Assembly: GCA_003484955.1 (NCBI GenBank)
Contig: DMZH01000002.1
Location: 211,496 to 275,495 of the forward strand
Length of the DNA: 64,000 bases
Reading direction: 5' to 3'
From: Candidatus Woesebacteria bacterium
GTDB lineage: Bacteria; Patescibacteriota; Microgenomatia; UBA8517
Position numbers and translations under genes: made by a program. The notes beneath the pieces are model-generated. The model worked only from the letters and a program-made list of their open reading frames with translations, did not search any database and was not told the DNA's origin. Positions 8,466 to 16,332 of the stretch are shown here, one piece after another; position 1 is the first letter of the stretch; every line of letters starts with the position of its first letter.

Positions 8466-8542
8466 GGTGGTTGTAGCTCAGTTGGTTAGAGCGTCCCCCT
8501 GTGGAGGGGAAGGTCGGGAGTTCAAATCTCCTCAACCACCCA
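8466..8542 (+). tRNA. tRNA-His (anticodon GTG) with encoded G-1
   Basis: Hand-folded cloverleaf: G-1 plus acceptor GTGGTTG/CAACCAC, anticodon loop CTGTGGA, T-arm GGGAG/TTCAAAT/CTCCT, discriminator C. Confidence 0.85.
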
Positions 8543-10093
8543 AGAGGAGGTAGGGGTAGTAGATAATTGCCTAATTAGCTCGAAAGATTGGCTCAATTTA
8601 GTGGTTCTAAATTTGTTATTTTCAAAAATCACATTTTCGGGGTAAATAGAACCAGTAAGCAACTTCCTTTGATTCAAGGTTCCCTCTTTCCACGCCTTAT
8701 CTAGATTCCACAAGAAGTTATTCATAAATTTAGTAACGATTTTAATATCTATTTTTTGCAGGTGAGCTTCGTTATTGTTTGATTTAGCTACAATTATCCT
8801 ATCTTCGATTAAGTCCATCTGCTCTCTAAATATCTCGTCTGAATATACACCTGATAGATTCTTTGATACCAGTCTTTTCCTTACCGTATAGAGAGCTTCT
8901 AGGTCATCTTGAATTTTCTTTTGGTTACTTATAAGGTGTGAATATCTGCTTTCCCACTTCTCGGCCACCATTTCACTAAATAGTGGTGTAAAGTCTTTGC
9001 TTGGTTGAATTTCTCTCAGATATTCTAAAAATAGATTTTCAAAATAATCTTTCTGATAAGACTTACAGAAGTGTTTTCCAATACAATAATAATACGGGTA
9101 GTGTCCACCTCTGCCTCTAGAGAATGAGCCTGTCATTTTTAGTCCACAAATTCCACAAATAACATGTCCTCTCAACGGAAAGTTTTCATTTAATTTTGTG
9201 TATTTAATTCCCCCTGTAAACGATCTCTTATCGATAATCGCTTGCACCTTATAGAAGGTTTCTTCACTAATCATTGGCTGATGATTTCCGATCCTATCAA
9301 CATTAAATTTTTGACTTACTACATAGCCACAATAAAACTTATCTCGAAACAGTCTTTGAGCATGTTGGCTTCTAACGGGGTTTTTCCGATTTCCAATTTT
9401 TACAAGTATGCCTAACTTATTCATATAAGTTGCCATTGTTTCTAGAGAATATGCTCCTGTAGACATTTCATCCCACGACTTTTTAACAAGATCAAATTGT
9501 TCTGGGTCTGGCTCGATTATCTGTTTTTCGTTTCGTTCAATGTTAATATAACCCAAAGCTGCCTTACCATTAGCCCATCCCGATTCCAACCTTTTTCTCA
9601 TACCATCACGGCTTCTTAATCCTTTTGTGGCGTTATCCAATTTCGCACTGGCAGCCAGAAGTGTTTCAAGAAATTCTCCTGTAGGACTGTCCTCTGTGGG
9701 TTCGGTTACAGATATTATTCTTATGCCGTAATCAGCCAACCGTTTTTTGATAGCTAGATAGTCAAAGGTTTCCCTACTAATTCTGTCTATCTTGTATATA
9801 AACACAGCGGAAATTTCGTTTTTGTTTTTGCGGGAATCCTCAAGAAGTAGGATTAGCTCTGGCCTGTTGATATTTTTAGCACTTACACCTTCTTCTCTGT
9901 AGACTTTTTCTACCACATAACCTCTATGATCAGCTTCTTTTCTGCAATACTCCTCCTGATTATCAAGACTGTAGTTGGAAACCTGTTCTTCTGAGCTTAC
10001 TCGAATATAAATATAGGCTTTTTTAGTCACTTCCATATTATGTTTCTTTATCTCCTGCTTTGTCAAAGGTGTTTTGGTTATATTTAGTCTCAA
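8522..10093 (-). CDS. Large serine recombinase (resolvase catalytic domain + recombinase domain + zinc ribbon + coiled coil)
   Basis: N-terminal resolvase motif (YIYIRVSSEEQ, IDRISRETFD). Zn ribbon (CGICGLKMTG...YYYC). 523 aa. The 3' end (TGA at 8522-8524) overlaps the T-loop and 3' acceptor of tRNA-His by about 20 nt. Confidence 0.9.
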   Translation of the reverse strand: MRLNITKTPLTKQEIKKHNMEVTKKAYIYIRVSSEEQVSNYSLDNQEEYCRKEADHRGYVVEKVYREEGVSAKNINRPELILLLEDSRKNKNEISAVFIYKIDRISRETFDYLAIKKRLADYGIRIISVTEPTEDSPTGEFLETLLAASAKLDNATKGLRSRDGMRKRLESGWANGKAALGYINIERNEKQIIEPDPEQFDLVKKSWDEMSTGAYSLETMATYMNKLGILVKIGNRKNPVRSQHAQRLFRDKFYCGYVVSQKFNVDRIGNHQPMISEETFYKVQAIIDKRSFTGGIKYTKLNENFPLRGHVICGICGLKMTGSFSRGRGGHYPYYYCIGKHFCKSYQKDYFENLFLEYLREIQPSKDFTPLFSEMVAEKWESRYSHLISNQKKIQDDLEALYTVRKRLVSKNLSGVYSDEIFREQMDLIEDRIIVAKSNNNEAHLQKIDIKIVTKFMNNFLWNLDKAWKEGTLNQRKLLTGSIYPENVIFENNKFRTTKLSQSFELIRQLSTTPTSSWVVEEI

Positions 10094-10207
10094 ATAATTG
10101 AAAACCTACTTCGATAATTTGATTAAAGGATGTAATAATTTCTAATAGTCTCTGGTCGGACAACGAATCGGCACATTCACCTAAGATTTTCCTCGCTTTT
10201 TCTATGG

Positions 10208-11548
10208 TCATGTTTTGTTTTCACTAAAAACCTCTTGGGCTAACAAAAATGCATCTACCCCACCATCCGACTCACTATTTATTTCTGATGTGGGACTAAT
10301 AAGGATTTTTCTTTTATCAAAACTGTCTGCTTCTTGCGTAATCAAGCCTGAAGTTTCAAGCATTGGAATAATCCATTGGCGAAGCTGCCAATCGGGTAAA
10401 AATCTTCCATAAACTTCGAAGTGCTTCTTCATTATCTCTTGCCTGCTTAGACCTCTCTTAACTGCACTGTAGGCACCCAGAATGACATCTTTATAGAGGT
10501 TGAGCACATATGGTGGAAGATTGAGTTCTTGTGACTCAGATATACTTATCCAAATTTTAAACGCTTCTTTTATATCGTCATCATTGGCCACAATTGCGTC
10601 CCCGTCTTTTTCTCTAAACCATAAGTTAAGAAGGGCTAAAACTTTGATTAAACTTATGACTCTGGCTATATCTCTTTGGTGCCTAGGTTTGGTTTGTTTG
10701 ATGCCCTTAAAAAACTCTTCTTCAACTAATTTAGAATTGCCGATTTTTATTTCTTGTATATTGGCTTCTTTTATTGCCAAAATTCTATCTTTCAGAAGTT
10801 TGCGATCTGGGTCTCGCTCTGTTATTTCTTTGTAGCCTTTACTGTCCGCCTCTTTCTTTATCTTCTCAAAAATAGCCTCTCTAATCTTTTCATTATTGAT
10901 TTCGGGGGATAACAATAAAAATCTTGTGGCTTCTTGTTCGTCTAGTCTTAAACCTGCGGTGCAAAATATAACAGCAGGAAATCCTTTAATAGCTACAGTC
11001 TTAGTTCTATTTCCGCCTTTCTGGTTTTTATCTGTAATCTTTGCCTTGATTATTTTTTCGTCGTGCGAAAGAAGCGATCTTGTGCGTTCAAGTAATTGTA
11101 TGTTTGGCTGATCTAGAAAGATAATAATCTTTCGGGATAAATCTACTTTAATTGTATTTGTTGCTTTATCGTATTCCCCTTGTTCGTGATAGAAAGCAGT
11201 AGGAGAACAGTTACCCAACTTAATCACATCTTCATCGGGAAACAACTTTACTATTTCAAGAGGAATGAAACTTTTACCTGTGGAGCTGGGTGCATTGAAA
11301 CTTATATTTAGCTGAGAATCCTCTGTAAATGCTGACAACTGGGCTAAAAAAGTAATTATTTTATTGGTTTCATCTCGCTTAATGGTAAGCCCTAGTATTT
11401 TTGTCAACTCATCACAGGTAATGGGCTTAAAATTTGAGGTATCAATCAACTTTTTTACTTCTTCCTTCTCAACTTGAGTTTCAACTCCAAACTCGTCCTC
11501 CATAAGCTCCTTAAAATCTCTCGGTGAATCCTCATTTGGAACGAACAT
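10208..11548 (-). CDS. P-loop NTPase, possibly phage/plasmid primase-associated (D5/VirE-like) replication protein
   Basis: Walker A (NAPSSTGKSF) and Walker B-like (IIIFLDQP) motifs. It overlaps the upstream small ORF by 17 nt. Its position next to the recombinase suggests element cargo. Confidence 0.45.
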   Translation of the reverse strand: MFVPNEDSPRDFKELMEDEFGVETQVEKEEVKKLIDTSNFKPITCDELTKILGLTIKRDETNKIITFLAQLSAFTEDSQLNISFNAPSSTGKSFIPLEIVKLFPDEDVIKLGNCSPTAFYHEQGEYDKATNTIKVDLSRKIIIFLDQPNIQLLERTRSLLSHDEKIIKAKITDKNQKGGNRTKTVAIKGFPAVIFCTAGLRLDEQEATRFLLLSPEINNEKIREAIFEKIKKEADSKGYKEITERDPDRKLLKDRILAIKEANIQEIKIGNSKLVEEEFFKGIKQTKPRHQRDIARVISLIKVLALLNLWFREKDGDAIVANDDDIKEAFKIWISISESQELNLPPYVLNLYKDVILGAYSAVKRGLSRQEIMKKHFEVYGRFLPDWQLRQWIIPMLETSGLITQEADSFDKRKILISPTSEINSESDGGVDAFLLAQEVFSENKT

Positions 11549-15271: not shown

Positions 15272-15614
15272 ATTCAATCATTCCTTTATATCGTTGTCTT
15301 CTGTATTTGAGATTTAAACATACTCTACATCCAACCTTCATGTTTCCTATGTAAAGGACTCCCTTCCTTTTATTGCAAACTGGACACAAAAACCACAACC
15401 TTGATCCACCAAATCTAGTTTTTGAAGTATCTATCAGGATTTGTTTTCCTCCTAACTCCAAATGAGATTTTATAAATTGAAGTTTAAACTCTTCTTTAGC
15501 CTTACGCACAAGACTGTTTATACTTACATTTTGGACGCTTTCCACAATTTCTCCTAAATCATAAGGGTTTATCATTTTGATTATTAGACTGAACAACTTG
15601 GTTCTGGCCAACAA
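15246..15614 (-). CDS. Zinc-ribbon protein (122 aa)
   Basis: CPVCNKRKG...GCRVC double CxxC. Confidence 0.4.
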   Translation of the reverse strand: MLARTKLFSLIIKMINPYDLGEIVESVQNVSINSLVRKAKEEFKLQFIKSHLELGGKQILIDTSKTRFGGSRLWFLCPVCNKRKGVLYIGNMKVGCRVCLNLKYRRQRYKGMIESNLQTAFH

Positions 15615-16146
15615 TTGCGGTCTGGGTTTTGATGTTTACAGAAATTGGGGGAGTTTTAAGCATTCTTAGCATCTGTAGAGAGGTTTGATAATGCCTCTCA
15701 GCCCTATCAAGCTCTTTACTCATTACATTCAGATAACCGACTCCCGTGTCCGTTACAGAACCTTTATCCAAATACGAGTTGATCTTTCTTTGTATTCCCA
15801 AAATTCTCACGAAATTAAGTGCCACAATTTCAGCCATAGATTTTTCACTTACAGTTTTACAGTCATATTCCTTCTGTAAATTCTTAAAAAATTCTAATGC
15901 GAAAGTTATATGAAGATCAGGAACTGAATTTAGTAGCAAAATACCTTTATCAAATTCAAATAAAGTCATTGCTTTATACAAATAATTTTCAGGTTGCACG
16001 CCTTTGGCATTGGAGTTTTTGAGGATCTTATGCTCTTCTTCTACTTTACCTAGAACATATTCAGCTCCAAAACCAGAATCCAATTGCTGAACAATTTCTT
16101 TCATCTCATCAATAGATTTGGGCTTGGTGATTTTGTTGTCAGGCAT
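15559..16146 (-). CDS. Hypothetical protein (195 aa), distal cargo gene
   Basis: ORF overlapping the Zn-ribbon gene by 56 nt. Confidence 0.4.
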   Translation of the reverse strand: MPDNKITKPKSIDEMKEIVQQLDSGFGAEYVLGKVEEEHKILKNSNAKGVQPENYLYKAMTLFEFDKGILLLNSVPDLHITFALEFFKNLQKEYDCKTVSEKSMAEIVALNFVRILGIQRKINSYLDKGSVTDTGVGYLNVMSKELDRAERHYQTSLQMLRMLKTPPISVNIKTQTAIVGQNQVVQSNNQNDKPL

Positions 16147-16332
16147 AGATATAAGCAGGAAAGGCGTGTCTTAACACTTCCATTTGTTCTATAATTGGTT
16201 CTAAGAAGTTATTATTAACGACCCCAAAGTATTTCAAATCGTCTGTTTATGTTTACCTTTACAAAATCCACTAAATGATATCTTCTTTATTTTTTGCCTC
16301 AAAATACTATTTTGGTATAATGAAAGTGTTGT

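Follow-up and report, generated by a model that had tools for sequence, protein, structure and literature searches.

The canonical serine integrases and related large serine recombinases (LSRs), among them phiC31, Bxb1, A118/LI, TP901-1, CcrB, and XisF, combine a catalytic serine motif with a three-domain architecture, in which the zinc ribbon has a long helical insertion. Their recombinase gene is found at the edge of the element, their attL and attR sites share minimal identity, and their target is a protein-coding gene. To our knowledge, serine integrases are regarded as avoiding tRNA genes. Here we describe, in a 64,000-nucleotide stretch of Candidatus Woesebacteria DNA (contig DMZH01000002.1, positions 211,496 to 275,495; this whole stretch is called the window, and positions are counted from its first letter), a 7.68-kb integrative element that was very probably inserted by its own LSR at the extreme 3' terminus of the tRNA-His gene, and that is probably plasmid-like. 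The element shares the above features with the canonical systems except the target, which is a tRNA 3' tip, and the helical insertion, which is predicted from the model of a homologue. It also differs from them in that the predicted attP lies within the recombinase open reading frame (ORF), so that the C-terminus would depend on integration, in that only one attB half-site (the tRNA) is conserved between hosts, and in that the LSR has only about 25% identity to phage LSRs.

Among tyrosine recombinases, ORFs that run across attP are known, namely those of Mx8 and SSV (PMC4383910). The sources for the Mx8 proteins IntP and IntX are Tojo et al. 1996 and Magrini et al. 1999 (cited through PMC4383910 and PMC6070905). 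The resemblance of the present LSR to Mx8 IntP, in which the integrase ORF also crosses attP and integration also changes the C-terminus, is functional only, since the two differ in superfamily and chemistry (serine here, tyrosine there) and in their hosts, which belong to the candidate phyla radiation (CPR) and to Myxococcus, respectively. Integration of Mx8 duplicates a tRNA segment, whereas only 4 bp are shared here. The ‘suicidal’ SSV-type integrases, described as exclusive to archaea (PMC8371274), likewise have the att site inside the integrase gene, which is partitioned on integration. However, SSV1-type tyrosine recombinases are split into two inactive fragments, while here the catalytic and DNA-binding domains remain together and a tail of 25-32 residues is detached.

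Genomic islands of the Islander/TIGER type (PMC4383910, PMC7192596) resemble the elements described here in their tRNA landing site, adjacent integrase, tandem arrays, and variable cargo including defence genes, but they carry a tyrosine integrase and a displaced tRNA fragment, both of which are missing here. Among serine-integrase (S-Int) elements, Mageeney et al. 2020 placed 14 of 297 at t(m)RNA genes, a use that they called previously unreported (PMC7192596), and the word ‘tRNA’ is absent from the LSR discovery paper of Durrant et al. The tycheposons of Prochlorococcus, 27 of 937 of which carry a large serine recombinase (10.1101/2020.12.28.424599), are likewise small and integrate next to tRNA genes, and they too combine replication genes with a variable cargo; they belong to another phylum, and the likeness, drawn from parts of that paper, is one of description. 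The searched passages of the same paper contain no intragenic attP with tail exchange. Overall, in a literature coverage that was incomplete, so that this is absence of evidence only, no serine integrase was found described as having an intragenic attP with tail exchange, and no CPR-wide clade of tRNA-targeting serine integrases was found described either.

The element and its attachment sites

The tRNA-His(GTG) gene was located by ARAGORN at 8467-8541 on the plus strand, preceded by the His-specific extra G-1 at 8466. The longest minus-strand ORF of the recombinase (8522-10093, 523 amino acids) shares 20 nt with it (8522-8541), in agreement with the initial annotation, which had the gene end in the T-loop with an overlap of about 20 nt. 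The stop codon TGA (8524-8522) is placed in the T-loop, and the C-terminal residues W-V-V-E-E-I correspond to the reverse complement of the CCA, acceptor stem, and T-stem of tRNA-His; the VVEEI codons and the stop (8539-8522) are antisense to the host tRNA, and the W codon (8542-8540) spans the attachment core. The tRNA-His 3' end has no second copy in the window (27-mer, at most 3 mismatches), as had been noted before for the far end at 16.1-16.3 kb, and neither a direct nor an inverted repeat of it could serve as the distal boundary in the window or in relatives.

The boundaries were set by an allele, L032, found in a scan for alleles with a base other than G before ACCCCAAAGT. It comes from the same population and has the host flanks of the window (left flank, 99.3% identity over 143 nt with one mismatch; right flank, 99.94% over 3,056 nt), between which it carries a different element of 7.95 kb at the same site. 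The LSR of that element is 42% identical to the present one (P0082-like) and likewise overlaps tRNA-His. Host identity between the two alleles stops at 8541 (...CAACCACCC) and restarts at 16221 (ACCCCAAAGT...). Therefore, the element extends from 8542 to 16220, with 7,679 bp between the cores, and a circle with one core would be 7,683 bp. The alternative element (L032, 3052-11005) encodes a DUF3800 protein, an HTH_36 regulator, and several ORFs without assignment, and it has no cargo in common with the element of the window.

The right boundary, previously left undefined, is thus placed between 16220 and 16221 (core 16221-16224), about 110 nt inside the end coordinate given earlier. The secreted-protein genes up to 19.08 kb had been suspected to belong to the island; since these, together with the DUF6448 and LytR_C genes of this stretch, flank a different element in L032, all of them are assigned to host DNA. 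Four independent assemblies break at this place: L024 and L025 (k141) start at 16221, L001 (k127) ends at 16347 (16221 + 126), and L029 (GenBank contig LBYU01000016) ends at about 16319, as judged by coordinate offset. These breaks fit a branch in the assembly graph at 16220/16221. The compositional difference from the flanking DNA that had been noticed at first is borne out, as the GC content is 0.348 in the island and about 0.40 on either side, and no other 7.7-kb block of the window deviates as strongly in tetranucleotide usage.

The attL and attR sites of the element share only the four bases ACCC, and the shared identity in relatives is 4-6 bp (five elements compared). The earlier explanation of the missing repeat by a tiny att core is therefore essentially right, and so short an identity is compatible with recombination of attP and attB at a 2-bp crossover that needs no extended homology. 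From these comparisons, the crossover dinucleotide must lie within the ACCC core. The empty site is predicted to read ...CTCAACC-ACCC-CAAAGTATTTC, that is, a tRNA-His gene with an encoded CCA (CTCAACC-ACCC-CAAAGT), and the corresponding attP would read ...TTATTAACG-ACCC-AAGAGGAGG.... Because the crossover is located at tRNA positions 71-74, the reconstruction shows a tRNA body left untouched and no tRNA fragment duplicated. In the occupied site the 3' trailer of tRNA-His is C-A-A, where the original was presumably C-C-A. An encoded CCA is absent from 13 of the 15 tRNA genes in the window, the only exceptions being two tRNA-Gly genes that end in TCCA; since most tRNA genes of the genome lack it, its loss at tRNA-His is probably harmless. 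The 15 tRNA genes include those at 19090-19361, 27629-31932, and 36411-38416.

A crossover deeper in the tRNA, in the T-loop or the anticodon loop as in tyrosine integrases, with the element supplying a replacement tRNA 3' end, would be compatible with the single nucleotide difference between the window and L032 in the T-loop, 15 nt from the junction. However, neither attR contains a displaced tRNA fragment, and ACCC is all that is shared. Furthermore, L006 and L007 are near-identical elements in hosts whose tRNA-His genes differ in the T-stem and the acceptor stem, and identity between the two elements starts at CCACCCA followed by TAACGAGGG, which indicates a crossover at the tRNA tip and not inside the tRNA. 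A deeper crossover is thus considered extremely improbable. On the other side of the core, the B' arms of the predicted attB sites are unrelated between hosts, and the tRNA half-site alone is conserved.

Several other approaches to the boundaries were of no use. Dyad symmetry between P and P' gave no signal above background as a boundary finder; an inner inverted repeat, TCGTTA-N8-TAACGA, centred on the A/C step, is present in attP of L003, L012, and L026 and absent from the element of the window. The inverted repeat I8 (8514-8540 and 18404-18430, 27 nt, 74%) suggested a boundary at about 18.4 kb and a palindromic attB, as it links the tRNA-His 3' end with the start of the LytR_C gene, both of which encode VVEEI, and the two joined form a near-palindrome. 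This boundary was rejected because LytR_C keeps its N-terminal MVVEE in L015, where the arrangement is different, and because L032 sets the boundary at 16221; the inverted match is judged to be a coincidence. In L015 (8407-9270), the host of the closest related element, the LytR_C gene adjoins the 5' side of tRNA-His in divergent orientation, while in the window it is located 10 kb away on the 3' side, and gene order around tRNA-His has therefore been rearranged between these Woesebacteria. A boundary at about 4.8 kb, derived from the cargo shared with L003, was wrong, as the L003 element is 10.5 kb.

The recombinase and its detached C-terminal tail

The LSR has the Resolvase (PF00239, E=1.4e-30), Recombinase (PF07508, E=6.7e-10), and Zn_ribbon_recom (PF13408, E=2e-7) domains of Pfam, a catalytic motif YIRVSSEEQ, and a motif IDRISRET, the residues of which are invariant across 21 and 41 homologues. 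By its domains and motifs it is assigned to the large serine recombinase family, and the possibility raised at first that it might be a degraded fragment without the catalytic serine does not apply. The GenBank annotation gives it 514 amino acids with a start at 10066. The start is likely the ATG at 10036 (504 amino acids), since this codon is located 2 nt after the stop of the conserved upstream 57-amino-acid ORF, as in homologues. An AlphaFold2 model of the homologue P0022 shows a confident LSR body (mean predicted local distance difference test score, pLDDT, 82), in which the zinc ribbon is followed by two long helices (354-401 and 407-435); in this homologue, these are candidates for the coiled-coil motif that LSRs have inserted in the zinc-ribbon domain.

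The far end of the island continues the reading frame of the LSR. When the two ends are joined, the W codon is followed by 27 further codons and a stop (TGG-GTC GTT AAT AAT AAC TTC TTA GAA CCA ATT ATA..., encoding VVNNNFLEPIIEQMEVLRHAFPAYIYA), which in the chromosome are stranded 7.7 kb away at the opposite end of the element. The joined frame places the predicted attP within the recombinase ORF, with 27 codons left to the stop, and it also shows that the C-terminus would depend on the integration state: the circle would encode 27 residues after SSW (...SSW-VVNNNFLEPIIEQMEVLRHAFPAYIYA, ending in ...SSWVVNNNFLEPIIEQMEVLRHAFPAYIYA), and the chromosome encodes five residues antisense to the tRNA (SSW-VVEEI). 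The stop of the tail overlaps the ATG of the 195-amino-acid gene (ATGCCTGA), so that in the excised circle the LSR gene would run straight into this gene.

A free form of this kind was observed in a relative. L026 has a 127-nt exact terminal overlap and is circular (12,694 bp) without a tRNA, and L027, from a second sample, carries the same contiguous LSR ORF P0022. In both, the P-arm motif directly follows TGGGT inside this uninterrupted ORF. Therefore, a free form exists and encodes a longer LSR, and for this relative the excised circular form with a reconstituted attP has been seen. L033 (P0109, with an attP-like tail) was also considered as a free form, but it is not circular and is uninformative. 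L003 has the P-arm motif TATAATTGGTTCTAAGAA as well, and L026/L027, L005, and L012 have it with 1-4 substitutions. The distal ends of L003, L005, and L012, all of them tRNA-His elements, contain an 18-nt motif, TTCYTAGAACCAATTATA, and from the position of the P-arm motif these elements are 10.5, 11.0, and 6.9 kb, respectively.

In the mechanism that we propose, the full-length LSR encoded by the circle would be the integration-proficient form, and integration at ACCC would exchange its 27-codon tail for tRNA-antisense codons. By analogy with Mx8 IntP/IntX, this exchange may modulate how active the enzyme is, or in which direction it works, once the element is integrated. With attP within its ORF, the recombinase would be switched by simple physical means from a circle-encoded to a chromosome-encoded isoform and back; in the literature searched, such an arrangement is known only for tyrosine recombinases (Mx8, SSV). 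If true, the tail switch would be a further way of controlling directionality in serine integrases, enzymes of major use in genome engineering.

Another explanation is that the tail sequence is conserved only as the P DNA recognition arm of attP and that its open frame is incidental. The 18-nt motif is near-invariant including third codon positions, as expected of a DNA-binding site, and it probably doubles as the P-arm recognition sequence, so that part of the conservation may reflect DNA recognition instead of protein function. The predicted tail of P0022 points in the same direction, since its helix (513-527) has a pLDDT of 44-54, too low to judge docking. An LSR attP half-site is typically about 25 bp long, whereas residues of the tail are kept with synonymous changes at 45-80 nt from the core (VLRHxFPxY, L[FY]KVFGxKxYxFA), past such a half-site. 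For example, the window has VLRHAFPAY and L005 has VLRHHFPTY, with different codons for five of the seven shared residues, and the tails of L012 and L026 (LFKVFGQKSYAFA and LYKVFGHKNYTFA) keep residues despite synonymous codon changes. All four integrated copies (window, L003, L005, and L012) keep the frame open for 25-32 codons with stops at similar positions, for which the chance estimate at this AT content is about 0.16 per copy, and the rate of non-synonymous substitution in the tail (dN) is lower than that of synonymous substitution (dS) in nine of ten pairs. The element of L032, which is unrelated, encodes a comparable tail (...ILKQAYPKH...). It therefore appears doubtful that the tail serves as DNA alone.

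A function of the tail in the protein, and its generality, also have several observations against them beyond the motif and the model. The dN/dS comparison covers 24 codons only, and the pair of the window and L003 has no synonymous excess. The P-arm motif was not found in the fetched flanks of six relatives. In L006 (reverse complement, about 7200-7390) and L007 (reverse complement, about 15140-15310), distal similarity extends as far as the 3' end of a small helix-turn-helix gene of MerR/excisionase-like type; these distal ends have no FLEPII-type tail, and L007 has no CCCA core there.

Related recombinases, cargo, and mobility

There are 487 homologues of the LSR at E<=1e-10, mostly from Patescibacteria, and their C-termini resemble antisense translations of tRNA genes (e.g. 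...SSWVADGIRTRDLLLHK). Of 114 full-length homologues, 63 have the T-loop-antisense signature and 48 have a stop within a few residues of the junction, with another, non-tRNA tail in the other three. Among clade-A loci (57-64% identity) from species-representative genomes, seven of eight end antisense in tRNA-His, as do the loci L015 (LSR 79% identical) and L016 (71%). The exception, L009, is a tandem array, in which a second, unrelated LSR element is inserted between the first element and tRNA-His; all nine relatives (58-79% identity) with a fetched locus and no intervening second element thus end antisense in tRNA-His. More distant relatives (30-38% identity) adjoin tRNA-Lys(CTT), tRNA-Glu(CTC), or tRNA-Glu(TTC). 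A distal tRNA fragment was found neither in the element of the window nor in seven tRNA-His relatives.

The overlap between recombinase and tRNA is not due to chance, because the same layout recurs at seven of eight clade-A loci, in L015 and L016, and in the unrelated LSRs of L032 and of the second element in L009. It is not a peculiarity of this locus; by these comparisons it is a family-wide consequence of an attP inside the recombinase ORF. The family is apparently widespread and undescribed, targets the ends of tRNA genes, and has its own recombination site inside the gene. Such tails antisense to tRNA would explain the odd, non-homologous annotated C-termini of many of these proteins, and a whole clade with hundreds of public sequences would use tRNA 3' ends systematically without duplicating tRNA sequence.

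A broader proposal, which is put forward tentatively, is that these enzymes form a clade of serine integrases in CPR/Patescibacteria that is large, has not been described before, and is specialised on tRNA 3' termini (His, Lys, Glu, and probably others), with attP in their own coding sequence and two integration-dependent isoforms: a full-length protein made only from the circle, with a conserved helical tail of 25-32 residues, and a chromosomal one with a tRNA-antisense tail. The tail swap would be a built-in switch of activity or directionality, and one conserved attB half-site, the tRNA, may suffice. These LSRs are also candidate integration tools for the genetically intractable CPR bacteria.

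The approximately 6 kb beyond the LSR are compact, mostly on the minus strand, and mostly without family matches, which upholds the initial description of tightly packed, largely uncharacterizable genes. The 57-amino-acid ORF is a candidate accessory or directionality factor. The 446-amino-acid P-loop protein may replicate the circle; its family PF27228 (MTBMA_p00010_2nd) is named after an archaeal plasmid ORF, and it has no match in PDB, NCBIfam, or PADLOC, where the cargo ORFs have none either. DUF5659 recurs in the related elements L003, L006, L007, L015, and L026, and homologues of the 122- and 195-amino-acid proteins are found in L003. Between elements, only the LSR and the 57-amino-acid ORF are common and the cargo differs, and the gene block is thus not syntenic in relatives. 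Elements of this family can carry defence genes, as L016 (392-5752) encodes an OLD-like TOPRIM ATPase and a restriction-modification enzyme of type IIG-like character (1,089 amino acids; N6_Mtase, Eco57I). In L009 (11688-14835 and 18047-19906), the second LSR (619 amino acids) overlaps tRNA-His and is accompanied by a 579-amino-acid ATPase and a 471-amino-acid protein, which can be read as an OLD-type ATPase and a UvrD-like helicase in a Gabija-like pair. Small integrative and apparently self-replicating elements of this kind, some with defence cargo, would be agents of gene flux in the CPR.

LSRs are typical phage integrases, and the best PHROG match of the present one is phrog_95 ‘integrase’ (E=3.3e-90), which raises the question of whether the element is a prophage or a phage satellite instead of a plasmid-like integrative element. 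However, Pfam and PHROG scans of all island ORFs detected no virion structural, packaging, or lysis gene, and thus no capsid, terminase, tail, or lysis gene in the 7.7 kb; no relative was found in IMG/VR, and identity to phage LSRs is low, as mentioned above. In addition, the circular L026 encodes a DnaG-type primase/Toprim, a small resolvase, a MerR/Xis-like protein, and metabolic genes, with no virion gene detected. A phage origin is considered very unlikely. The Pfam search also found no Phage_integrase (tyrosine integrase) domain in the island ORFs, and the intact three-domain LSR, the L032 allele, and the behaviour of the family sustain the original proposal of an element integrated at tRNA-His by the LSR.

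The present-day mobility of this copy is another matter, since the element may be a fixed remnant that is vertically inherited, with an LSR that is idle or domesticated. Many contigs of this population were retrieved by exact matches to proteins encoded in the flanks. Every one carries the island, and those for which both host flanks were fetched do not differ from the window anywhere in it. Neither an empty attB site, sought in one scan of JGI metagenomes, nor the circular junction of the element in the window was found, and the 90% protein cluster of the LSR contains no attP-form isoform. These observations speak for a fixed remnant. On the other hand, neither the LSR ORF nor its catalytic motif is disrupted, the detached tail retains its 27 codons and its stop, and the assemblies break exactly at the junction. 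Moreover, in a near-identical background L032 has another element at these host positions, a replacement polymorphism that implies recent turnover at the att site. A fixed remnant is therefore considered rather unlikely.

Feature coordinates and neighbouring observations

Table 1. Features of the integrative element and its attachment sites in the window.
Feature	Position	Strand	Basis or remark
tRNA-His(GTG) including G-1	8466..8541	+	B arm of attL; complete through discriminator C73
Integrative element	8542..16220	.	L032 allele, attL/attR comparison, composition
attL core ACCC (tRNA positions 71-74)	8538..8541	.	End of L032 identity; attL/attR comparison in five elements
P' arm of attachment site	8542..8590	.	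Part of the LSR gene (codons ...LSTTPTSSW); relatives share it, starting at the junction
LSR gene	8522..10036 (longest ORF to 10093)	-	ORF, domains, homologue starts
57-amino-acid ORF (MTIEKARKILGE...IEVGFQLFE)	10038..10211	-	Directly upstream of every clade-A LSR
446-amino-acid P-loop protein	10208..11548	-	Walker A APSSTGKS; precomputed PF27228 match
67-amino-acid ORF and 84-amino-acid DUF5659 protein	11532..11992	-	Pfam
Six cargo ORFs without family: 250, 281, 168 amino acids (-), 321 (+), 122, 195 (-)	12135..16146	mixed	
Detached LSR 3' end, 27 codons and stop (VVNNNFLEPIIEQMEVLRHAFPAYIYA)	16139..16222	-	Continues the frame of ...SSW when the element is excised as a circle, not otherwise
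P arm of attachment site	16181..16220	.	Motif TATAATTGGTTCTAAGAA at 16191-16208
attR core ACCC; host DNA restarts (ACCCCAAAGTATTTC...)	16221..16224	.	L032 allele; contig breaks
Predicted attB junction			CTCAACCACCCCAAAGTATTTC / CTCAACCACCCCAAAGTATTTCAAATCG
Predicted attP junction			TTATTAACGACCCAAGAGGAGG / GTTATTATTAACGACCCAAGAGGAGGTAGGGG

In a second strain, L022, the 118 mismatches to the window are all located at about 6.3-8.0 kb (6335-8000; about 5% divergence), and the sequence from about 8.0 to 19.0 kb is identical. A mosaic produced by recombination, or else a chimeric contig, is suggested by this pattern, and as all mismatches are outside the island and its right flank, their density is uninformative for dating the island. 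The gene calls for an HNH-type gene (7951-8427) differ among several assemblies. At 54400-63750 of the window, about 17 short minus-strand ORFs have a GC content of 0.44-0.45 and deviant tetranucleotide usage; this run looks like a ribosomal-protein-type operon and not a second island.

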